From an uncultured cyanobacterium (GTDB lineage: Bacteria; Cyanobacteriota; Cyanobacteriia; Cyanobacteriales; Microcystaceae): a stretch of DNA of 16,125 nucleotides. The position numbers and the translations under genes were made by a program. The stretch covers positions 1-16,125 of the forward strand of contig CAWEDJ010000070.1 of the NCBI GenBank assembly GCA_963807635.1, written 5' to 3'. The notes beneath the pieces are model-generated. The model saw nothing but the letters and a program-made list of their open reading frames with translations. It did not search any database and had not been told where the DNA came from. Of this stretch, positions 2,956 to 16,125 are shown piece after piece (within the stretch, counting starts at the first letter, position 1; each line of letters begins with the position of its first letter).

Positions 2956-3804
2956 TTATCTAATGGTAGGTTGTCCGACTTCTGCATTATCTATTCGATC
3001 TCTCATGATTTGGGCAAATTGTTCTGCTTTTTGAGGGTCTAAAAAAGAGGCGACTTGAATTGAAGTGATTCCTTTTTCTTTTCGATATTTAGGGAAGGCA
3101 TCTCTACAATAATCTCTGCGAACTAAAAAGAGATTTGCTTGACTATTGGTAATGAAAACAGGATACCAGGCATTTTTTCCACCAGGATCTAAATCACCAC
3201 AGGAGGATAAAGGAAAATTTGGTACAAAATCCGTTGTTGAAGAATCCGTATTGTTCTGAGAATTATTGGCAAATTGATTACGAAAGTTAGTCGAAAATTT
3301 GTTTCCTAGAATAAAACTAATAATCGTTATAGGAATAAGAATGATAATAATATTTCTGAGTTGATGAGTTTTGGGCGGTGGAAGATTTGTTGGGTTTGCT
3401 GTTGGGAGTTTTTGAGTAATTGGAGGAGTGACAGGGTTAACTTTTTTTGGAGACGGTTCTAATTCTTCTGTATCAATTTGTAGTAAATGAACGGAAAGAT
3501 CGTAATACCATTTTTGAAAAGGATCGGGTTGGCTTTCTGCTTTATCGTACCAGCGATCGCGTAAAGATTTTATAATTTCTCCATCAAACGGATCACAACA
3601 AAATATATTTTTTAGTCTTTCAGATTCGTTATCAATTTTAGGGTTTTGGCGAAGTAATTCTGATTTTGCTGACTTTAATTTCTCTAAACTCATTCCCTGA
3701 TTATCACAAAATTTTGCCCAATCTTCACGGCTGACAGTAAATTCGCGATCGCGGAGAAACTCAAACGCTTCATCCAGAAATAGCTGAACTTTTGTTAGGG
3801 TCAT
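2956..3804 (-). CDS. Hypothetical single-pass membrane protein (helical N-domain, Pro-rich linker, TM, small Cys-containing extracytoplasmic domain)
   Basis: 282-aa ORF with a P/T-rich linker, hydrophobic IIIILIPITIISFILG, an N/S-rich spacer and a C-terminal CGD...WYPVFI...YCRDAF...IQVASF...AEQFAQ domain. Confidence 0.8.
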   Translation of the reverse strand: MTLTKVQLFLDEAFEFLRDREFTVSREDWAKFCDNQGMSLEKLKSAKSELLRQNPKIDNESERLKNIFCCDPFDGEIIKSLRDRWYDKAESQPDPFQKWYYDLSVHLLQIDTEELEPSPKKVNPVTPPITQKLPTANPTNLPPPKTHQLRNIIIILIPITIISFILGNKFSTNFRNQFANNSQNNTDSSTTDFVPNFPLSSCGDLDPGGKNAWYPVFITNSQANLFLVRRDYCRDAFPKYRKEKGITSIQVASFLDPQKAEQFAQIMRDRIDNAEVGQPTIR

Positions 3805-4081
3805 TGGGGGAATCTCTTACACTTACTTGAAATTACAATACTGTAAAATTATTTTTAACACATTATTGACAAAAAAGATATGATTTAGAATTACAGATTT
3901 TATTTTAAGGATCGTTTGATTGATGGTTATTCGACCATAATCGTCATAAAATTAACAAATAACCTACAGTTTCTCGATTTTCCTAGCTATTTGCTCACTG
4001 GCAGGAGATTAAGATACACGGTAAAAGTTATGAAGCGATCGCGTAAGCTATCATCAGGACTTGTATTGCAGTCAAAAAATC

Positions 4082-4735
4082 ATGTTAATCACCGTTAACC
4101 CCGAAACATTAAGCCTAAGCCCAGGTAGCGAGATCATCCTCAGAAGTCAAAGCTGGCAAGATTACGAAAACCTTTTAGCAGTTCGTAAAGATAAAAAATT
4201 GCCAAAACTCTATTTCAATGCCCAAAACCAAGAAATTTATCTTATGTCGCCCCTGCCAAGTCACGGAAACCGTATTGATACGCTTAGAGATTTAGTTAAA
4301 AGTTTATTACGCTTTCAGCAAAAAGATTGGCAATCCTTTGATCCCATCACCCTTAAACAATTCAAACAAGCAGGGGTAGAACCAGATACTTGTTTTTATA
4401 TAGCAAACTATCAAGAAATTTTGGGTAAAGAACGGATTGATTTAAGCATTGATCCACCACCTGATTTGGCAATAGAAGTTGATCTAACTTCTCTGACTAA
4501 CTTAGAAACCTATAAACCGATAGGAATTCCTGAGTTGTGGATTTATAACTCTGGAGTCTTAAAAATTTATCTTTTTGTAGATAAAAATTATCAAGAAAGT
4601 TCCCAAAGTTTACTTTTTGAGACTTGGGATGTCAAATCTATTTTGCCTAAATATGTAGAGTTAGCTTGGAATCAAGGTTCTAGTTTTGCACTAAGACAAT
4701 TTGAGCAAGAGATTTTAAATCTATCAAAAGATTAG
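4082..4735 (+). CDS. Uma2/DUF820 family PD-(D/E)xK-fold protein
   Basis: SWQDYE, MSPLPSH, GVEPDTCFY, PPPDLAIEVDLTS, YKPIGIPELWIY. ATG at 4082 is preferred over TTG at 4061. Confidence 0.92.
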   Translation: MLITVNPETLSLSPGSEIILRSQSWQDYENLLAVRKDKKLPKLYFNAQNQEIYLMSPLPSHGNRIDTLRDLVKSLLRFQQKDWQSFDPITLKQFKQAGVEPDTCFYIANYQEILGKERIDLSIDPPPDLAIEVDLTSLTNLETYKPIGIPELWIYNSGVLKIYLFVDKNYQESSQSLLFETWDVKSILPKYVELAWNQGSSFALRQFEQEILNLSKD

Positions 4736-4896: not shown

Positions 4897-6027
4897 ATGA
4901 GTGATAATACCCTAGATACTTTAAAATTTCTGCTCAAAGATAGCCGCAAACTAGCAGAACAATTTACTGAATTTAAAACCAGTTCTCAACAATCATTAGA
5001 ACAATTTATTGAGTTTAAACAACAATTAAATAATACGATCGCTGACTTAGAAGAACGGATAGAAAAAATAGAAGAAAGCCAATCTAATGTGGGAAATCTT
5101 GCAGTTAGTAATTTTTCGCAAAGTTTCTCTAATGAAGAAATTGAACATTTGCTCGATCTCCCTTTAGAGAAAATTTTAGACGTTTATAGTGAAGTTCCCC
5201 AACTCTTAGAGATTATTTGTCGTCGGGTTGCTGTCTCAATCAATGAGGATAGCTCTAACCCTATATTAGAGCGTAATAATCAAGGAAATTATTGGGTTTT
5301 ACAATTAAGAGAACAAGGATTTTTTCTGTTACCACGATTTGGTTCATTTGTGCGCATGACAGCCCTAGAAAGTTTGCAAAGACTTTTTGAGAGTGAGGGG
5401 AAAATACCCGATTCAGGAAATCATGAATTTTTATTAAAACAACCTGCCAAACTAGAATTACTCAAACGCAATCAACGCTGGCAATTAGCAGAAAAAGGAT
5501 TGATTCAGTTTGGAGAAGCTCCCCTTGAATTTCGTTGGCAACAGGAGATTCGTCAAATGCGCGATCGCTATCAAGAATTTACCAAAATGCTCGAAAAAGT
5601 CGGACAAGCGGGATTAGAAGCAACCGTTACAACCCAACGCTGGCAACAGGAATTAGAACAACGCTATGGCGAACCTGTTAGCATCATGATTAATACTTGT
5701 ATGCCCATGGCCTATGCGATTTATAAAGGGCCAACCCTAGTTCCTTGTCATGTCATTTTGACAAAAGGAATTTGTTTAGTTCAACCCGCCTGGGATCGGG
5801 GTGTTCCCTGGGATACTTCGATTTATGCAAAATCTCACAGTAGAAATGTACTGCGTTCGAGTCCCGATCATCCGATTTTGGCTAATCAGCCTTATTTTAA
5901 AGAGATTACCTATTTAAAAGAGCAAAAAAATCAGACCTGGGCGATCGCCAATACCTATCAAGAAGCTTCCCGTATTATTTCTTTACTGAATGGCAATTGG
6001 GGATCACTAGAAGACTTTCCGAGTTGA
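4897..6027 (+). CDS. Hypothetical protein: N-terminal coiled coil, unnamed 'PAKL..W..EKG' domain, unknown C-terminal domain
   Basis: 376-aa ORF with a heptad-like N-terminus containing a 14-aa duplication (EQFTEFK/EQFIEFK) and a central LERNNQGNYWVL...FFLLPR...LFESEG...KQPAKLELL...WQLAEKGLIQF segment. Confidence 0.85.
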   Translation: MSDNTLDTLKFLLKDSRKLAEQFTEFKTSSQQSLEQFIEFKQQLNNTIADLEERIEKIEESQSNVGNLAVSNFSQSFSNEEIEHLLDLPLEKILDVYSEVPQLLEIICRRVAVSINEDSSNPILERNNQGNYWVLQLREQGFFLLPRFGSFVRMTALESLQRLFESEGKIPDSGNHEFLLKQPAKLELLKRNQRWQLAEKGLIQFGEAPLEFRWQQEIRQMRDRYQEFTKMLEKVGQAGLEATVTTQRWQQELEQRYGEPVSIMINTCMPMAYAIYKGPTLVPCHVILTKGICLVQPAWDRGVPWDTSIYAKSHSRNVLRSSPDHPILANQPYFKEITYLKEQKNQTWAIANTYQEASRIISLLNGNWGSLEDFPS

Positions 6028-6283
6028 GGAGGTTTTCTGAAAAAAATCAGTAATTTTACGGTTGCAATTTGATTCTATTGCCCAAAAAAGTAGCTTTTAG
6101 GTTAAAAAAATCTCTTTAAATCGACAAGGCAATTATTAAAATTCTTTAATGCCTTGTAAAATCTCTATGAATGAGTTATGGTTATTAAAATTGAAATAAA
6201 TTTTTAAGTAGCTTGAATCCTTCATCAATATTTTTATTAGTTTTTGTTGTCTATATCTGTGTCATTAAAAATAGATTAACCTT

Positions 6284-7600
6284 ATGTCATTTTCGGGGTT
6301 TCGATTCGTAAGTCTTGGATTAATCACTATTTTACTAACTTCCTGTGGGGGAAAAGGTCTTCAGTGTGTGGACAAACCTCAAGCTGATTCAGACAAAGAT
6401 CCTTTCAAAAATGTAAAGGTGGAAGTTGGCATTGATGGAAGTGCTTCCATGTTGGGTTATGTCAAAAATCCAGGGACTCGTTATAGTCAGGCGATCGATT
6501 CCTTGAGTTCCGTACTTCAAAACAAACCTGCTCAATATTGGCGTATTGGTCGAGGCGAGAAAGTAAGCGAACCCCAAGCTCTGACGGCGAATGAATTTCT
6601 TAATGCCCGCAAAGAAGAATTTTATGATTGTAAATTGCCAGGCTCCAATTTTGCTTGTGTCAGCAGTTCTTTAGATCAAATTTATGCGATCGCGAAAGAC
6701 AATCCCAAAGAAGATGCCCTAAGAATTTTATTAACGGATTTGGAACCCGATCAATCGGCTATCACATCACTGTCGGGAAAAATTAGTGCGGAATTGAAGG
6801 CAAATCGAGGTTATAAAGCAGTTTTATTAGGTGTTCGGAGTGAATACAATGGCAATGTGTTTTCGGCAGAGACAGGTAATGTGGCAGTTCCTAACTACAT
6901 TTCAAATGATAAAGATGTTGATCAAAAAGGAAGACCTTTTTATGTCTTGATGACGGGGCCAGGTGCGGCGGTTGATGCGATTGTTACAAATTTGCGACAG
7001 TTACCCCTGGATGTTAATCAAGCTTTTCGAGCCTCTTCCTTTACCATTGGGGGAATTGATGCCATTACCTTGGATAAAACCAATCTTAAGCTGAAATTCA
7101 ATGAGTGTATGAACCAAACAGGTGCGATTAAGAAAACTCGTCCCCCAAAAAGTCAAATGGATCAATGGCTTTTATTGGAACAAAGTTGTATTAATAAACC
7201 GTTATCTTTAGAAATTCCTTCTGAACCAGCCGTAACTTTGGCAGGGGCAGAACTTACACCTGAAATGTTTAAAACTTCTAGTCCTGCCGTCAAATTGCAA
7301 TCAATTGCGGTGAGTGAGGATAAAATGAAATTGAGCTTAATTTTAGACGGTGAACAGATTCCCAAGAAAACAGGTCAAGAGATTTATATTAGCTTGCAAA
7401 AACGGGATTTGGATCAGGCACTTTGGAAAAATTGGGATACAACCGTCGCGGCTCCTGATGGAGCAAAAACTCAAAATCTGGCTCTTTTTATTAGTACGTT
7501 ACGTGGTGAAGTGGAGAACGCCGTTCAAGATCCCAAGAAAAAAGCCGCTACCCTAGAAGCGATTAAATATTGTTTGGGTTTAACTCGCACTGATAAATAA
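6284..7600 (+). CDS. Lipoprotein with vWA-like (MIDAS) domain
   Basis: Signal peptide with lipobox LTSC (Cys21, 6344-6346); beta-strand plus DGSAS (DxSxS, 6434-6448); later ILLTD (TD at 6734-6739); AVLLGVRSEYNG and RPFYVLMTG segments. Confidence 0.8.
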   Translation: MSFSGFRFVSLGLITILLTSCGGKGLQCVDKPQADSDKDPFKNVKVEVGIDGSASMLGYVKNPGTRYSQAIDSLSSVLQNKPAQYWRIGRGEKVSEPQALTANEFLNARKEEFYDCKLPGSNFACVSSSLDQIYAIAKDNPKEDALRILLTDLEPDQSAITSLSGKISAELKANRGYKAVLLGVRSEYNGNVFSAETGNVAVPNYISNDKDVDQKGRPFYVLMTGPGAAVDAIVTNLRQLPLDVNQAFRASSFTIGGIDAITLDKTNLKLKFNECMNQTGAIKKTRPPKSQMDQWLLLEQSCINKPLSLEIPSEPAVTLAGAELTPEMFKTSSPAVKLQSIAVSEDKMKLSLILDGEQIPKKTGQEIYISLQKRDLDQALWKNWDTTVAAPDGAKTQNLALFISTLRGEVENAVQDPKKKAATLEAIKYCLGLTRTDK

Positions 7601-7617
7601 TTTAGAGGTTAATTTCT

Positions 7618-8121
7618 ATGAAATCTAAAGACTTTTTCGCTTTGATAATTGCTTTCGCTATAGCAACAGGCTTTGTCTTATTACTCAAACCCTATCTTTT
7701 TAATGAGCCTATACTTCCCTTAACCATGAGTAGTAATGAAATAGAAGACTGGATGGGATCGATTTTTTGGCCCACTACTTTTATTCTTTATGGACTAGGG
7801 ACTTTATTCCTATTTATTTGGATTTTAAAGGCGGCTAGAACTCAGTTTATGACAGCAACAGAAGTACTTTCTAATCAAACTTTTTGGTGGATATTGTTGG
7901 CTGTTTACTGGATTTTAGGAATTGTTATTTTTATGTCGGTTTCTTTTTTTAGCGGTTGGATGGACGGCACAAAAAGTATTGAACCCCTATTCTGGTTTCC
8001 GCCTTTTGTGGTTCTTGATGGTATTTTCCTCTTTTGGCTACCGACTGCGATCGCCACTCCCCGATCCATGCGCTACGTTCCCCCCTTTGCCATGACTTTA
8101 CGCAAACTTTACGGAGGTTAA
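7618..8121 (+). CDS. Integral membrane protein with four predicted TM helices
   Basis: 167 aa with four long hydrophobic stretches; GAGG RBS upstream; 17 bp after the lipoprotein stop and 5 bp before the next start. Confidence 0.85.
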   Translation: MKSKDFFALIIAFAIATGFVLLLKPYLFNEPILPLTMSSNEIEDWMGSIFWPTTFILYGLGTLFLFIWILKAARTQFMTATEVLSNQTFWWILLAVYWILGIVIFMSVSFFSGWMDGTKSIEPLFWFPPFVVLDGIFLFWLPTAIATPRSMRYVPPFAMTLRKLYGG

Positions 8122-8126
8122 AAACT

Positions 8127-9622
8127 ATGAAAAAAATTTACGCGATCGGTGTGGGAGGCAGTGGAGCCAAATGTTTAGAATCCGCCATTTTTCTCCAGGC
8201 TTTAGGGATTTTTGGGAATGCTCGTTTGGGTCTTTTATTAGTTGATGCGGATGCGGCCAATGGAAACTCCCAACGTACCCAAATTAATCTCAAAAATACC
8301 CTAGAATGTTATCAACTTCTTAAGCCAAATTCAAACCAAACAAGCTCTTTTTTTTCAGGAGAATTAGCAGACTACGGCATTTGGAATCCTTTAGGAAAGG
8401 AAATTCATAGTAGCAATCTAAGCAAGATTTTTAATAAGCAAGGACTGGGGACAACTTCTCCTGCTTTGGCTAAACTTTTTGACGCGCTCTATAGTCCTGA
8501 TGAACAAGTCGCTGATCTCGCTGTTGGTTTTCGCGGTCGCCCTCCCATTGGTTCCGCCATCATGAGTCGTTTGGAATTAGAAACTCTCCAGAATGATCCT
8601 AATGATAATTGGCAACGCTTATTTAATAATATCCAGACCGATCGCGCTAACGGAGACGACGTTTCTATCCATCTTTTTGGCAGTGTTTTTGGGGGAACAG
8701 GGGCTTCTGGGGTTCCTACATTAGCGACCCTAATTTCTAAGCAACTTCGGGATAATAATTTACGGAATAATGTTCACCTTAATGCGTCTCTTTTATTGCC
8801 CTATTTTGGTTTTGAAAAACCTGATGAAGAGGAACAAAAAGTTTTTGCTGAAACACGCTTTTTTTCTTTTAATACCCAGGCGGCATTGCAATATTTGACA
8901 GAACATTCGGCGGGCGTGTTTGATACAGTTTATTTAATCGGGAATCAAGAAAAGAAAGATTATAAATCTTCTACGGGAGGAACTAAACAGCAAAATGATG
9001 CTCACTTTGTCGAACTTTATGCGGCTTTAGCGATTAATCATGGTTTCAGTCAAGCGATTGGCGCAAACCCAAGCGGCTTATATTAGTCGTACCAGTCAGG
9101 AAAATTTAACTTGGCAAGATATTCCCGATCGCGAAATTGTTAAAAAGCGATTAGCAAAAGGAGTAAGGTTTGCCTATGCTTGGTATTATAATTTTGCTTT
9201 GGAGTTAACATCTGCTCAGAAATTAGGGGCTAAAAAATTTGCGAAAGGGGCCCCTTGGTTTCGTTACTTTTTTAGTCTGAAAAAAGAAAGTGATGGAACC
9301 TTACCTACTTTGTCAGAAGAAGCTCAGAAAAAACAGGCGGAAGTGTTAGAGAAATGGACTCAAGGTTTTTTAATTTGGGCCCAACAAATTGCCCAATCCC
9401 ATCGCCAAGGCGAGCAATTATTCCGTCTTAAGACTCTTAATTTAAAAACCGAAAATCGTTCTCCCGCCGATCATTTAAGTGAATTGATCATCGATAGTCC
9501 TAAAAGCTCTAAGGAAAAAGACCGCGATCGCCTAGATACGTTTAAGAATGAATTAGCGGATCAGGGGCCAAAAAGATCAGGGCGTGTCGGGATTAGCCCA
9601 TGAATTATTTAATTTGATTTAA
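8127..9622 (+). CDS. Tubulin/FtsZ-like GTPase (Tubulin_2/FtsZ-like type), ~497 aa after correcting two apparent frameshifts (~9062 and ~9572)
   Basis: ATG at 8127 with GGAGG at 8113-8117. Motifs: IGVGGSG (G at 8148), LLVDAD, GFRGRPPIG, GSVFGGTGASG (tubulin signature, GGTGASG at 8691-8711), LLLPYF, NTQAAL. ORFs 8127-9086 and 9040-9603 overlap in +1 register. Removing one A from the A5 run at 9570-9574 gives ...PKDQGVSGLAHELFNLI* ending at 9622; this second correction is less certain. Confidence 0.85.
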
Positions 9623-9636
9623 TCTAGGAAAATTTC

Positions 9637-9966
9637 ATGCAGATTATTAAAACTCCCCTAAGCCAAACCCTAGACAAACTAAAGGAACAACTTTTTCGGC
9701 AGTATCAAGAAAAACTGAGTTCTCTTATTCTGTTCGGTTCCCAAGCTCGGAAAGAAGCAAATCCTGAATCAGACATTGATGTGTTAGTACTCCTAAAAGG
9801 TGAAGTAAATCCCTTAATAGAAATCAAAAAAAACAGTGTTTGGCTTGCCGAGCTTTGTTTAGAAACTGAAGCTTTAATTAACTGTATGTACTTATCCGAA
9901 GAACAATTTCAAATTCGGAATGATCCCCTATTCCGCCAGATTAAACAGGAAGGAATAATAATGTGA
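9637..9966 (+). CDS. Minimal nucleotidyltransferase (MNT), putative antitoxin
   Basis: ILFGSQARKEANPESDIDVLVLL is the Pol-beta-like GS...DxD motif; ends IKQEG; 109 aa; overlaps the HEPN gene by 4 bp (GTGA). Confidence 0.92.
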   Translation: MQIIKTPLSQTLDKLKEQLFRQYQEKLSSLILFGSQARKEANPESDIDVLVLLKGEVNPLIEIKKNSVWLAELCLETEALINCMYLSEEQFQIRNDPLFRQIKQEGIIM

Positions 9967-10364
9967 ATGAAAATCAAACCCAACTTTTTAAAAAAGCAGA
10001 ACAAAGTTTGGAAGTATCTCAATATTTATATCAAGGTGGTTACTATGATTTTGCGATGGCTAGAGCCTATTACACGATGTTTTATCTTGCTTCAGTGCTT
10101 TTGGAGGGCGAAAATCTCAGTTTTTCAAAACATTCTGCTGTTATATCTGCGTTTGGTAAAGAATTCGCTAAAACAGGTAAAATTCCCAAGGAGTTTCATC
10201 GCCATCTAAAAGAGGCACAAGATTTTCGTAACTTAGGAGATTATGGAGAAATGAATTTAATTACAGCAGAAGAAGCTGAATTACAAATAGAACGTTCAGA
10301 AACATTTTTAAGGTTTGTCAAGAATGCCTTAAAAAATTCAACCAAGATTATGGAGTCTAATTAA
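9963..10364 (+). CDS. HEPN-domain protein (UPF0332/COG1895-like), partner of MNT
   Basis: KAEQSLE...ARAYYTMFY...FSKHSAVISAFGKEF...FRNLGDY pattern; translationally coupled to the MNT gene. Confidence 0.9.
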   Translation: MNENQTQLFKKAEQSLEVSQYLYQGGYYDFAMARAYYTMFYLASVLLEGENLSFSKHSAVISAFGKEFAKTGKIPKEFHRHLKEAQDFRNLGDYGEMNLITAEEAELQIERSETFLRFVKNALKNSTKIMESN

Positions 10365-10368
10365 ATTA

Positions 10369-10932
10369 ATGGTTACAATTGCTCTTAAATCCTATAGTTT
10401 TGAAGAATATTGTCACTATAATGACAACACAGACAATCGTTATGAATTGGTTGATGGCCATCTGAAAATGATGACTCCTCCTAGTTTTCGCCATTTATTG
10501 ATTGCTGATAAATTAAAAGAAATTCTCAATCAAGAAATTAAACGTCAGCAAAAATCCCTCGTTTGTCTGTCTGAATTAGTAGTCCGAACGGGTTGGAAAA
10601 AATCTCGTATTGTGGATTTAGCGGTGATTTCTCGTAGTCAGGTTATCGACTCTTTAGAACAAACAGCGATCTGTGAAATTCCTTCTTTATTGGTCATTGA
10701 AATTGTTAGTCCCGATTCGATTCAACGGGATTATCGTTACAAACGCTCAGAATACGCGGCTGTGGGCATTGCTGAATATTGGATTGTTGATCCCCTGGAG
10801 CAAAAAATGACGGTATTAACCTTTAATGAAGGTCTTTATGATGAACAGATTTTCTTGGGAGAAACCGCGATCGCCTCTAACCAATTTCCTGAACTAAAAA
10901 TCACTGTCAACGAAATCTTAACTATCAATTAA
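10369..10932 (+). CDS. Uma2/DUF820 family PD-(D/E)xK-fold protein
   Basis: SFEEY...RYELVDG...MTPPSFRH...SRIVDLAVI...LLVIEIVSPDS..RDYRYKRSEYAAVGIAEYWIVDP. Confidence 0.93.
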   Translation: MVTIALKSYSFEEYCHYNDNTDNRYELVDGHLKMMTPPSFRHLLIADKLKEILNQEIKRQQKSLVCLSELVVRTGWKKSRIVDLAVISRSQVIDSLEQTAICEIPSLLVIEIVSPDSIQRDYRYKRSEYAAVGIAEYWIVDPLEQKMTVLTFNEGLYDEQIFLGETAIASNQFPELKITVNEILTIN

Positions 10933-10934
10933 CT

Positions 10935-13900
10935 ATGACTAACTCTAATACTAACTACCATCCTCTTTTACCCAAAACGACTCAAAATTTTTCTGGCGGC
11001 TCTGCGGCGGGGGAATGGAAAACGGATGGTGTGCCGCTTTTTAATCGTCTGGGGAATAGTCTCGATTTTGAATCGGGCAATCATAACGAAATTAATTCGA
11101 TTCCGAGTCCCTGGTCTCGCGCTTTACAATTTATTTCAGCCATGCGGAATGACAAATATCCCAGCCGTGAATGGTTGATCGCTCAATATCGGGGTTTCTT
11201 GGCCGCGATCGCGCTTTCAGAAAATCTCAAATTACCTTTACAGGCGATCAAAATTAATTTAAAGGATCATCAAAGGACAGAATTTGGGCGTTGTTTAGAG
11301 AAATTGAAGCCCAATGCTCAGGACAATGTTTTTGCAGTTGAATTAGAGGGCGGGCCTTGGTCTCAGCTTTATTTGTTTGAATCCGAGGGAACGGTGCTAG
11401 GTTTTACGAGTCCTGCGACCTTGGTTGTACCGACGGGTCATCTCAGAAAAAATCTGAGTCAACGGATTCCCTGGGTTAAGGGTAACTTTTTTGCTGATCC
11501 CATCAAAAATGGCTTAACCCAGACTCAAAAGGAAATTCTTGCGCCCTGGTTACAGAATTTACAAACGGAATTGCTCAAAAATCCTGTGAATGAGAAATTA
11601 GCGGGGGAAGTCGCTACCGAACTGGATCGATTTTTGCAAGATCTGGCGGTCTCAACAGTTGATATTTTTCAGCCAACGGAGAAGCCTTTTCCTTTTGGTG
11701 AGGCGTTGGCTCCTGCTCCTTTGACGGCGTTGATTCCTGCGAAGGTGGTAGAGCAAGAGTCTAATGTGAAGGTTTTGGCTTCTAAGGGTTTAAATCCAGC
11801 GAAACCGCTCTATATTATCGATTCCAATCAGCTTCCTGCCATGATGGGGCGAGATGTGCGGGATATTAATGTGATTGGTTCTTCTCCTTTGCCAATTTTG
11901 ATCGCAGTTCACACCAAAATGAAAACGGTCTGTTTTTGTTTCCCGATGAGTTATTTACCAAGGAGTTGTTTTATACGCGCAGTAAGGGTTTATTGCCTGG
12001 AACCTGGCTGGATCGGAAGTTAAATCTGGATAATTTGACGATTTTTCTGCCGTTGAATTCTATTTTGAAGGAGTATTTCACGAGTCAAGATCTGGAGACT
12101 CAGGTGCAATTTTCTTCCATTAATACCCCAGAAGGGCCAGGGGTCAAGGTTACTTTGGGTTTAACGTTGTCGGGTTTTAAGGAAACAACGGCATCGGGGC
12201 AAACTCAACAAAGAACGGTTAAGTATCAGGTGACTAAGGATTTTCCGCTCAGGGCGGAGAATGAAATCAAGACGGCGTTTCCGACCCTTGCCCTTTGGCC
12301 GAATGTGCCACCAGGAAAATGGAAGGAATATTTTATTTTGGTGGAAACTTCTGAGGATTTTGGCGGTTTGGCGTTTAAGATTGAGCAACCAACGGATAAA
12401 GCGACTCAGGAAACTCGCAAGTCTGGTCAGGAGAGTTATCAATATTGGAAGTGCGATCGCTATCCAGAGATTCTTTCGGCGATCGATGGGGATGCTCAGT
12501 TTTTGGGTTTATTGCCTTTGAGTATTCCGAAGGTTCAGGCAAGTGGTGCAGGAACTTGGACAGTCGGCGTTGATTTTGGTACTTCTTTTACTAATATTTA
12601 TGTCCGTAAAGGGAATGGTCAACCAGAACGCTTTAATTTACAGACTAATTTGTTGAAGATTACAAGAGGTTTAGAAGACATTCAGGCTGTCACCTATCGA
12701 GAATTTTTTGTTCCCGATGCTTTTTTACCAGAAGGAAAAAATCCCCCACTTTCAACAATATTGACAACTAGAGGATGGCAGGAAGTTGAAGCTCAAATTC
12801 CTACTCCAATTAATCATGCTCGCATCTATTTACCTCGTTTGGACTCTAGGCATATTGACAAAGACTACATTAAAACCAATATAAAATGGCAGCAAATCCA
12901 GTATCAACGCCCATTTTTGGGTCAGTTATTACGATTGATTTCGGCCCAGTCCGCTCAAGAAGGTGTACATACCTTAGAGTGGTCTTTTTCCTATCCTTCT
13001 GCTTTTTCTCAGGGGGAACAAAATCGCTATGAAGCTACTTGGCAAAACTTACTTCAAGATTTAACACAAATCTCAGGTCAGACTAATAGACAATTGGGTG
13101 GCCAAGCTCTTCGCACAGAAAGTATTGCATTTGCTCAATTTTTTGGAGATATTCTAGGTAAAGATTTAGTGCATACCACTTGCATTGATGTGGGGGGAGG
13201 AACTTCTGATATATCTATTTGGCAGGATAATAAATTAATTCATCAAGCATCTGTTCCCTATGCAGGACGAGAGCTGTTTCATCAAATTTTAAGATCCAAC
13301 TTAGCTTTTATTGGTGAAATTTTTGGTTTTTCTTCTCAAGGAGCTGAGACTTTACGTGAAAACTTCGCTAGTCGGCAAAATTTTAATTCAGCATTAGATC
13401 TCTATCTTCGAGGACAAGCAGATAACTTTCTTGCTAATGGTTACGTTATGAATTCTGATAAACAACGTAGTCGAGAGTTCCGTACTTTAGTTGCTTTTTC
13501 TTTAGGGGGTTTATACCACTATCTAGGATTAGTTCAAAAATATCTAAGCATAGAAGGAAAATTCAAACAAAAGGATTATCTGACTTCTATTTTGATTGGG
13601 GGAAATGGATCTCGCTTTTTAAATTGGCTAACCACCAGTGGCCGCTATACTACTAAATCTGAAATTAATGATCTCCTTAGAGGAGTATTGACACGAGCTT
13701 CTGGTTTACGAGCTAATCCTGATTTAATGTCTCTTTCTCCCCAACCCAAAGATGAGGCGTGTGGGGGATTAGTCGTTTTGCCTGATGGGGAAAAGTTGAC
13801 AGGATGGCAAGAAAAACGGAAGGATTGTCTTTTCTTAGGTGAAACTTGCACAATTAATGGCAAAACTTTTGCTCCCGACCAACGACTAGAACTAAACAAG

Positions 13901-14206
13901 GATTGGGAAAGCATTGAAGATTTTCGGATTACTTCTTTCAATGAATTAGAAAGCTATATTAATCACTTCAATACGATTATTGCGGATGAAAATATTAAAG
14001 AAATTGATCCACTTCGCAACTTTGAAAAGGGTGGTTTATTTACAATGACAGGTGATTTACAGACGCTTTTGGAAACCTCTGTTACCAAAGTTTGCCTCCG
14101 AAAGAAAGGCTCAGTAAATGAATTTGAACCCGAACCGCCATTTTTACTGGTTCTTCGGTGTTTTGTCAGTGTTCTCGCTAAAGAGTGGTCTAAAACAGCA
14201 AATTGA
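10935..14206 (+). CDS. Large actin/Hsp70-fold ATPase with ~540-aa unknown N-terminal region, ~1090 aa after correcting one apparent frameshift (~11890)
   Basis: The downstream frame is open from 11870 and overlaps ORF 10935-12023; joining gives ...VIGSSPL/ANFDRSSHQNENGLFLFPDELF... ASKHA motifs: VGVDFGTSFT (12563-12592), FSYPSAF, TESIAFA, CIDVGGGTSD (13181-13210), YAG, GGNGSR (13598-13615), PKDEACGGL. Confidence 0.85.
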
Positions 14207-14216
14207 GGAACCAGTT

Positions 14217-15289
14217 ATGAACAACAAGTTATCATCTACTCTGATCGTAGCTACTGTAATTATTGTACCTACCACGATTATCTTACTTAATCAAACGGCG
14301 ATACATAGTGCAGTTAATAAAAGTCAATTATGGTTATTTCCATCTCTATTGATAATAGGATTTGTAATCAATATTGTGATTCTAATATTGATTTATTATG
14401 GATTAAATAAAATATTAAAGTATTTCGGTTTACCACCTATTTTTAGAACAAGGCCAAAAAAGGTAATAATAGTAGTGATTTTAATCAGTATATTGAAAGC
14501 TTACTATCTGAAGAATTGAATCAGTTAGACTTACCACTTATTAAAATTCAATTGGATAAGTTACTAAATGATCTTGGTTTATCTATAGAAGATAAATTGC
14601 TACTTAACAATCAAGCTTCATATCCTTTTAAAACTCCAAAGAAACAAAAGAAAGCTACTGAGGAAAAGGAAACTACAGAACAAAAATTGTATCAAATTTT
14701 CAGTCAAATCAACAAATTAGTTGATGCTCAAAATCGACTTATAGTAGATTTTAAAAGCTTTTCTGAAGAGACAATAGATGAGATTTCTAAGCTGAGTCAA
14801 CAACCTCTTTCAATTTCAAATAAAGAAGATTCTTCTCAATCGTCTCAGGTTAATCAATCTTCAGATAACTTAACTTTTAATAAATCTGAAATGTCATCAG
14901 ATCTAATAGAGCTAGTTAAAGAATTTAACATTCCAAATATTGAGTATTTTCGTTATCCTTCTTTTATTCCTTTAGCTTTAACAAAACAATCTATTCAAGG
15001 AGATTTTGATTCAACTTTTAGTCGAATTATTCAGCTAGAAATTTCTTCAGATAGTTCTCAAGACTCCTACTATCTTAAAGTTGAGATAGATAGTGAAAAT
15101 TGGTTAATCCCAAATATAACTTCAAATCGTTTTCATACAATAATAAATAGTTTAAATGAAAATCCTGAGATTTTTGTCGTTCATCCTGGTTCAGGTACTT
15201 TGCAATTAGTCAAACCAGCCAAACTTAAAGAAGTTAGTTCAGGAATTTGGAACATTGAAGAACCTGGAGAATTTACAGAGCAACAATAA
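14217..15289 (+). CDS. Two-TM membrane protein with coiled coil and C-terminal 'KPAKL..W..EPG' domain, ~357 aa after correcting one apparent frameshift (A6 run at 14456-14461)
   Basis: ATG at 14217 with GAGGA at 14205-14209. The frame of ORF 14516-15289 is open back to 14447. Adding one A gives ...RTRPKKGNNSSDFNQYIESLLSEELNQLDLP... Confidence 0.75.
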
Positions 15290-15363
15290 ATAGATATTTG
15301 GAAGACTAGATTTAGTTTTTGGGTCTTAAAATTCAGAAACTAGATCAATTACTTCGATAAAAT

Positions 15364-16125
15364 ATGAAAAAACTTTCACGACTTATTCTCATTGTTATTA
15401 CAAGTATTATTCTACCAACTTTTTATTCTCCGAGTTGGGCAAAAGAGTGTCCTGCTATTCCTAAAACAATTAAAGTAGTGACAGTAAAAACTGATATCGC
15501 AAAGCTTCGGCAAAAACCAAATCAAAATAGTAAACTAGCCCCAAACTCTTTGCAAAAGACAAGCTCAAAGTGGTTAGTTTTAAGCCAATACTTCAGCAAT
15601 ATTGTTGGTATAAAGTTAGTCTTCTCAAGGATAAAAATAAAGGGCAGTACTGGATTGCAGACGTTGGAATTAGTGAATTTCCATTTGCCATCAAATCACC
15701 AAAGGTTACATCTTCTCCTTCTAAAAAAAATCAGCAAAATTCTTCTTCTAAACAGTATCAAGAAAATACTAATCAACCAACAAATTTTTCTATTTTAATT
15801 ATCTTTATTGGATTAGGAGCATTATCTATAAGTGGAATTGTTTTTTCACTATATTGTGTCTCTTTATTTAAAGAATATGACAAACAAATTGAAATTCTTC
15901 AAGAAACTTTAGAAGACTCTGAAAAGCAAATTAAAAATATTCAAAATACTGTAGAAAAATCAAAGCAACAAATAGAAAATCAATTTAATAATCAAATTTA
16001 TCTTAATACTCAGGTTAATCAGTTACTCGAAGTAATTAAAAATATTCTTCAATACAAATCACTTTTTTTATCCCCTCAAATTAAAGAACTTGTAACGCAG
16101 TTTAACCATCTCAATCGTGAGCTAT
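15364..16125 (+). CDS. Signal peptide, SH3b-like domain, TM and coiled-coil protein; one apparent frameshift (~15556); 3'-truncated by window edge
   Basis: Signal peptide ending SWA, then VTVKTDIAKLRQKPNQNS. The -1 frame is open from 15534 to the window end: DKLKVVSFKPILQQYCWYKVSLLKDKNKGQYWIADVGIS...FSILIIFIGLGALSISGIVFSLYCVSLF (TM)...coiled coil...IKELVTQFNHLNREL. Confidence 0.75.

Follow-up and report, generated by a model that had tools for sequence, protein, structure and literature searches.

Which proteins share a domain around a tubulin-like GTPase and an actin/Hsp70-fold ATPase, and what does this domain bind? The question is raised by a 16,125-nucleotide stretch of DNA from an uncultured cyanobacterium (hereafter the window), which represents the entire contig C70 (CAWEDJ010000070.1) of a 4.0-Mb draft genome and whose proteins have their nearest named homologues in Snowella and Synechocystis. 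A preliminary description of the window had proposed that one unnamed domain appears in up to three proteins of the locus behind different N-termini, and that it is a shared cytoplasmic adaptor docking interchangeable receptors onto a tubulin/actin core. We report here that this widespread unnamed domain is real and is tightly linked to an undescribed tubulin–ATPase operon.

Three copies of one domain

We confirmed that the genes starting at positions 4897, 14217 and 15364 (the last gene of the window), all on the plus strand, share one homologous alpha/beta domain of about 125 amino acids (aa). The motifs that had drawn attention to it lie where they were first placed: GNYWVL at 5284 and F.LKQPAKL..WQLAEKGLIQF up to 5511 in the first copy, LIELVKEFN at 14903 and LVKPAK..WNIEEPGEF at 15206-15274 in the second, and IKELVTQFN at 16080 in the third. 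Copy 1 (5143..5514, plus strand; profile match E 3.2e-32) is of the soluble internal type. It starts earlier than first thought, near 5143, and is followed by about 170 further residues of a soluble 376-aa protein (4897..6027, plus strand), which is composed of a coiled coil, the domain, another coil and an unnamed conserved C-terminal region. This last region, of about 130 aa (~5640-6024), is a second conserved unnamed region with NTCMP, PAWD.G and HTWAIA motifs, and has no match in Pfam or the PDB. Copy 2 (14894..15280, plus strand; E 3.7e-25) is of the membrane-anchored C-terminal type and terminates a protein with two transmembrane (TM) segments and a coiled coil (14217..15289, plus strand), whose gene has a frameshift near 14414-14465 and an intact orthologue, P0002, of 357 aa. 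The last gene (15364..16125, plus strand; frameshift near 15538) encodes a signal peptide, a weak SH3b-like ectodomain, a TM segment, a coiled coil and the start of copy 3 (~16070). The SH3b label is weak (Pfam SH3_3 at E 0.016 in one of five orthologues); a coiled coil had been noted ahead of every copy, and all three window copies pass a crude heptad score, the copy in the 14516 open reading frame (ORF) only barely.

A direct BLASTP comparison of the 4897 and 14217 proteins detects no similarity (best E 3.8), and alignment of the two families with hhalign is weak (E 0.0033 and 0.00055). A hidden Markov model (HMM) was seeded solely on the 4897 family and relatives were added to it round by round in a search space of 427 locus ORFs. 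A single round was enough for it to detect the 14516 ORF at E 1.4e-4, and the value became 1.5e-9 when a member of that ORF's own clade had joined. Fifty-seven intermediate copies are matched by both families (hhalign prob 97.5, E 7.8e-12; prob 99.8, E 1.4e-27), and the homology of copies 1 and 2 is recognisable because these intermediates from related loci bridge the gap between them.

Iterated profiles thereby connect the copies, and two AlphaFold2 models present the same order of predicted elements. Copy 2 (14900-15286) was modelled with a predicted local distance difference test (pLDDT) value of 93.6 and the elements E58-63,E66-71,H78-87,E92-95,E100-105,E107-113,E116-121,E123-128, and the C-terminal half of the 4897 copy, modelled alone, with a pLDDT of 83.5 and the elements E3-8,E12-17,H25-34,E35-38,E49-53,E55-60,E65-70,E72-76. 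Strands, helix and bulged hairpin follow each other in one order, as judged by comparing the order of the elements and not by superposition.

The rest of copy 3 lies on contig C41. An intact orthologue of 446 aa, P0006, aligns to the two contigs as four segments: C70 accounts for residues 1-94 and 60-243, and the end of C41 for residues 243-331 and 329-446, with no gap between the contigs. The last gene resumes at the reverse end of C41 (102941-102675 and 99371-99012), interrupted by two insertions of an insertion sequence (IS) with 6-bp TANNTA duplications, the window terminating within the first duplication. Its C41 portion, LVRPAKLKAIGFDLWEIEEPGEF, contains the PA..W..G tail by which the preliminary description had recognised the domain. 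These insertions look real and break the last gene, so there are three copies of the domain, of which this strain has apparently lost the function of one. The IS is abundant, about 1.65 kb long and presumably IS5-like, with inverted ends and nested in itself; it is present at C41 99371-103129 and on many other contigs, and many contigs end in it. The orthologues of the last gene (C41 99012-99200; P0003, P0004, P0006) exhibit an extra C-terminal segment of about 70 aa that appears winged-helix-like by eye.

The domain family and its tie to the operon

A profile of 43 copies, run against 1.84 billion representatives, matched 1,291 clusters (50% identity, E of at most 0.001). The domain corresponds to no Pfam family in 43 cyanobacterial copies, 46 Prevotella-type copies or 112 copies among 150 listed cluster representatives, and to no NCBIfam family in the 12 proteins scanned. 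The anti-phage profiles of PADLOC 2.0 matched nothing in 11 of 12 proteins and gave three weak matches to the TM/coil part of P0006 (E 0.003-0.005). Sequence-profile searches of the PDB and Foldseek against the PDB produced nothing significant for the domain, and the best VIA-align hit of the full domain model has a Z of 2.3, which is no proof of a new fold. In the ESM Atlas only unnamed clusters were recovered, with a structural TM of 0.78-0.85 to three cyanobacterial clusters. A tblastn search of phages for the domain found nothing; among viral folds, the best structural match of the model, a weak one, is a polyvalent protein of a phage (BFVD A0A7M1RZK7; E 0.1, prob 0.89, TMq 0.46).

Y, F, P, A, W and G occupy the conserved columns of the domain, a pattern that suggests a structural or binding role rather than a catalytic one; since no polar residue is invariant, an enzyme reading was discarded. 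Its carriers are proteins with a signal peptide, ectodomain, TM segment, coil and domain, soluble coil–domain proteins and tandem arrays of up to four copies, and it is also found fused to WD40, zinc ribbon, peptidoglycan-binding, TM2, RTX and caspase domains. In 74 of 184 genes the domain comes after a hydrophobic TM or signal segment; such a segment stands behind it in only 3 of 223 copies. The N-termini are at most putative receptors, and the majority of domain genes, 110 of 184, encode no membrane segment ahead of the domain. Among the 178 copies with sufficient upstream sequence, 127 pass the crude heptad score ahead of the domain, against none of 161 control segments from core proteins. 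Membrane and soluble carriers occur together in 47 of 65 loci. In a FastTree phylogeny of 223 copies, one supported clade holds 42 of the 61 soluble internal copies and the two full window copies fall in separate clades, the deep branches being weak. Near-duplicate copies had been removed from alignments A3, A6, A8 and A9.

The loci themselves vary. Many Synechococcus/Cyanobium-type loci (L133-L147, L153, L171) have a compact version, in which a membrane domain gene follows the ATPase and a soluble domain gene is convergent. At one chromosomal site, compared between L101 and L111, one genome has the full operon and the other a lipoprotein gene and a caspase-fused domain gene alone. A MotA-like/OmpA-like pair follows the operon at L022:14048-16732 (OmpA at E 5e-4; MotA labelled by eye).

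The two NTPases of the operon are a tubulin/FtsZ-like GTPase of about 500 aa with GGGxG and GSxFGGTGASG motifs (8127..9603, plus strand), which matches Pfam Tubulin_2 at E 2e-4 to 5e-4, under the cut-off, and an actin/Hsp70-fold ATPase of about 1090 aa with an N-terminal extension of about 530 aa (10935..14206, plus strand). The latter contains DFGT, TES, DxGGGTSD, GGNG and KxE motifs and has profile matches to actin, MreB, FtsA and Hsp70. Among 301 cyanobacterial genomes (a single sample, in which related genomes are not independent), 32 were found to encode the domain, as against 30 for the ATPase and 28 for the tubulin. The distribution of the domain is not independent of the NTPases: 27 of the 32 domain genomes also encode the ATPase and 26 the tubulin. 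In one ATPase-only genome, G086, the domain becomes visible with a deeper profile. Around the best 80 of at least 517 tubulin matches, the ATPase is present in 75 loci and the domain in 65, or in 58 of the 62 loci with at least 6 kb downstream. The gene directly after a full ATPase carries the domain in 55 of 57 loci, and the domain is fused N-terminally to second ATPase paralogues at L029:15750-18863, L107:4949-7879 and L154:16922-19906, taking the place of the first ~340 aa of the ATPase in the L029 and L107 fusions. The conjectured link of the 4897 gene to the system is supported, because its orthologues lie upstream of the core in some relatives and downstream in others yet stay in the locus.

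This association extends beyond cyanobacteria. The tubulin is present in six records of a plasmid collection, five cyanobacterial and one from Prevotella; gene order is unchanged in the latter, whose ATPase is homologous over its full length (prob 98.9). In this locus together with 80 metagenome loci of unknown taxonomy, the ATPase motif was detected in 47 and a complete next gene in 42, and 40 of these 42 genes terminate in one domain of about 115 aa. The profile built from these 40 genes (L269 and L277 having been dropped by eye beforehand) matches the cyanobacterial domain over its last 38 columns with prob 71-80 and E 1e-5 to 4e-5; controls gave prob of at most 6 in 60 block shuffles and 0.15 for a reversed control. 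A divergent form of the domain fills the same slot after the ATPase in Prevotella and metagenome loci and, given this match, the pairing of domain and ATPase appears to be old. Homology, a shared predicted fold, position, co-occurrence and fusions are all established by computation.

A putative docking module

From these data we infer the binding, topology, signalling and cellular job (envelope remodelling or defence) of the domain. We think it somewhat probable that it is a cytoplasmic module through which partners, whether membrane-bound or soluble, dock on the actin/Hsp70-fold ATPase. It would be a non-enzymatic docking or regulatory domain whose partner is the ATPase of the operon. Membrane-anchored copies, composed of a signal peptide, a variable ectodomain, a TM segment, a coiled coil and the domain, would recruit the ATPase to the inner membrane, perhaps drawing the tubulin-like GTPase there through it, and would relay envelope signals. 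In soluble copies of the 4897 type, in tandem copies and in those linked to WD40, caspase or zinc ribbon domains, the same plug would recruit cytoplasmic partners or tune the ATPase. By binding the ATPase from the cytoplasmic side, such a plug would allow one core to serve many front ends. A defence job would fit the patchy spread, plasmid carriage and variable partners; a remodelling job would fit the lipoprotein, the TM segments and the cytoskeletal-type core.

The preliminary description, whose interpretation is partly supported, had placed the adaptor on the tubulin/actin core as a whole; the next-gene position and the fusions point to the ATPase in particular. A complex prediction for the ATPase (11948-14203, 752 aa) and the domain (14894-15280) lends this weak support, with a score of 0.36 against 0.00 for the best of three controls, a run contact agreement of at least 56% and a partner pLDDT of at least 79. 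In calibration, 116 of 157 solved and 2 of 215 mismatched pairs attained this mark, the passes at 0.60 or less comprising just 18 solved pairs and both mismatches.

Several observations weigh against docking on the ATPase. Five of the 32 domain genomes lack an ATPase match (two weak fragments and three orphans or locus remnants, L100-L102), and genome G093 has a tubulin and a broken ATPase with no domain genes. The scores of the three complex-prediction runs were 0.00, 0.36 and 0.67; unless a pairing was already likely, a pass of this kind is false in the majority of cases. Moreover, genome context is unable to separate binding of the ATPase from binding of the tubulin, of the four-TM protein or of the domain to itself.

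Binding of the domain to itself would correspond to a homotypic adaptor, in which the copies, by binding one another, would gather sensors and effectors without themselves touching the ATPase. It would resemble the effector-associated domains of conflict systems, which show features implying homotypic interactions (Kaur et al., 2020; PMC7159879). With up to nine copies per locus and four per protein, membrane and soluble carriers side by side in those 47 of 65 loci, common within-locus clades and fusions including WD40 and caspase domains, the family would lend itself to such clustering. We regard it as rather improbable: some loci (e.g., L140, L170 and L175) contain a single domain gene, and the weak heterologous complex prediction favours the ATPase. 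The fusions to ATPase paralogues are compatible with either model.

A TM segment, a linker and a globular domain form a ZipA-type layout, and the membrane carriers share it. The domain might therefore tether the tubulin-like GTPase at the membrane, as FtsA and ZipA do for FtsZ, and the joint presence of domain and tubulin in 26 of the 32 domain genomes agrees with this. Such a tether seems very improbable to us, since the domain gene follows the ATPase and the domain is fused to the ATPase, and no tubulin fusion was found in the loci read.

Docking on the ATPase could also take a more specific form, namely that of a remote GrpE-like nucleotide-exchange factor, in which the beta-domain of a coiled-coil dimer would open the nucleotide cleft of the ATPase and membrane sensors would switch the ATPase through ADP release. 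The resemblance to DnaK–GrpE lies in an actin/Hsp70-fold ATPase accompanied by a coiled-coil partner that ends in a small beta-rich domain; the long coiled coil of GrpE has its counterpart in the heptads ahead of the domain (127/178 copies against 0/161 controls by the crude score). When the C-terminal half-model was compared with 48,161 chains, the 50 best included four GrpE entries: 9bls_B (Z 3.3, root-mean-square deviation (rmsd) 3.3, 55 aa), 1dkg_B (Z 3.1, rmsd 3.6, 57 aa), 4ani_A (Z 2.4) and 3a6m_B (Z 2.3). In all four, model residues 7/8-77 align to the C-terminal part of GrpE, and two of these entries recur with the full model (Z 2.1). Compared with 15 proteins selected by motif from the same genome, the ATPase matches DnaK-like ones best (E 2.5e-4) and, by eye, LFEC..KPA.V..E.G.L.F parallels the GrpE pattern HEA..RGY..LR.A.V.

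However, none of these Z scores reaches 4, propeller blades, which are unrelated, score equally well (best Z 3.9), Foldseek gives no match, hhalign against GrpE is negative for both domain forms, and Pfam GrpE (PF01025) matches none of the 43 cyanobacterial or 46 Prevotella-type copies. In solved structures, the ATPase profile ranks actin-family, MreB and FtsA chains before Hsp70. Relative to DnaK–GrpE, the overlay is weak and there is no sequence-profile similarity, the domain has about 60 extra N-terminal residues and is membrane-anchored, multi-copy and variable, and the ATPase has a large N-terminal extension, its likeness to Hsp70 being confined to nucleotide-binding motifs. Because the overlays tie with propeller blades and all GrpE profile tests failed, the GrpE-like form stays a lead, possible but unlikely in our estimation. 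We give a similarly low chance to its wider version, in which a remote GrpE offshoot would have given rise to transmembrane, sensor-coupled exchange factors and the ATPase would govern the tubulin, in an envelope-sensing machine of cyanobacteria and Bacteroidota. A group of DnaK-like, J-like and GrpE-like genes adjoins a broken copy of the operon at L038:12780-19257.

Neighbouring genes, related systems and significance

Upstream of the tubulin gene, the operon encodes a lipoprotein-like protein (6284..7600, plus strand) with a vWA/MIDAS-like DxSxS..TD pattern, in which C21, D51, S55, T151 and D152 are invariant in 16 orthologues and which, from this motif, may be a vWA protein; it has no match in Pfam or the PDB. 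It is followed by a conserved small membrane protein with three to four TM segments (7618..8121, plus strand), recognised from hydropathy and synteny. Two Uma2 genes, at 4061-4735 and 10369-10932, flank and interrupt the operon, and several relatives have similar genes at like places. A nucleotidyltransferase–HEPN pair lies at 9637-10364, between the tubulin gene and an Uma2 gene; the segment 9622-10367 is skipped by contigs in three of four sequencing runs. Further upstream, 2367-2817 on the minus strand presumably encodes a small HicA/HicB-like toxin–antitoxin pair, labelled by eye, and at 2956-3804 lies the gene of a one-TM protein that may be accessory; L022 and L037 too have a homologue of it ahead of the operon, one of these bearing WD40 repeats. 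Promoter and terminator scans reached chance level only.

Four window genes contain single-base frameshifts, including indels near 9063 and 9564 in the tubulin gene and near 11890 in the ATPase gene, and the corresponding genes of relatives are intact. These frameshifts are probably assembly errors, because frame changes also affect 12 of 48 conserved genes outside C70 (including grpE- and psbA-like genes) and the indels at 9063, 9564 and 11890 are absent from contigs of all four sequencing runs, which come from related strains and not from the window strain. Decay of the whole locus was rejected as their cause on the same grounds.

Among described systems, the FtsZl1 (Pfam Tubulin_2) operons, for which membrane remodelling was proposed, resemble this one in their divergent tubulin-like GTPase, membrane proteins and patchy spread including cyanobacteria, and perhaps in their vWA-type neighbour (Makarova and Koonin, 2010; PMC2875224). 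The conserved tubulin loop GS[IV]FGGTGASG corresponds to the GGGTG(S/T)G loop of FtsZl1, and the DxSxS..TD-like invariants, with no Pfam or PDB match, may point to a vWA neighbour. In contrast, listed cyanobacterial FtsZl1 tubulins have 910-1127 aa and vWA, B7 and OmpA neighbours, the family being described with a coiled coil (PMC2875224), whereas the tubulin of the window operon has about 500 aa, remains below the Pfam cut-off and is coupled to a 1090-aa ATPase and a repeated domain, neither of them named among the families in the available part of the FtsZl1 operon listing (PMC2875224). Unlike the FtsZl1 type, of ~1000-1100 aa with an extended coiled coil and a helical C-terminal domain, the 11 aligned orthologues have about 490-520 aa, and none of the 161 core-protein segments passes the heptad score. 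Nor is this tubulin of the FtsZl2 type, a stand-alone proteobacterial gene without conserved neighbours, since the ATPase lies beside it in 75 of 80 loci.

The DO-GTPase/GAP1-N2 conflict systems similarly combine tubulin, vWA, HSP70 with GrpE and membrane components, with a constant core and variable parts, but there, in the available part of the source, tubulin and HSP70/GrpE form separate, non-overlapping themes around DO-GTPases and GAP1 in firmicutes and actinobacteria (Kaur et al., 2020; PMC7159879). In the operon core neither a DO-GTPase nor a GAP1 gene was recognised, and no P-loop GTPase family was matched among the scanned locus proteins, in a search that did not include a GAP1 profile. 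Tubulin_2 proteins are set aside in another study, whose available part does not describe their context (PMC9871819), and no published description of the operon or of the domain was found in the full-text literature, subscription papers being outside its coverage.

The operon, which about one in ten sampled cyanobacteria and at least one Prevotella carry and which also occurs on some plasmids, unites tubulin-like and actin/Hsp70-like NTPases with swappable partners built on one plug domain. If our reading is true, it would be an undescribed machine for envelope signalling, remodelling or defence and, should the GrpE lead be true, nucleotide-exchange control would reach receptor-like proteins. 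With the plug domain and a likely partner for it named, the system becomes directly testable in harmless cyanobacteria that can be cultured.

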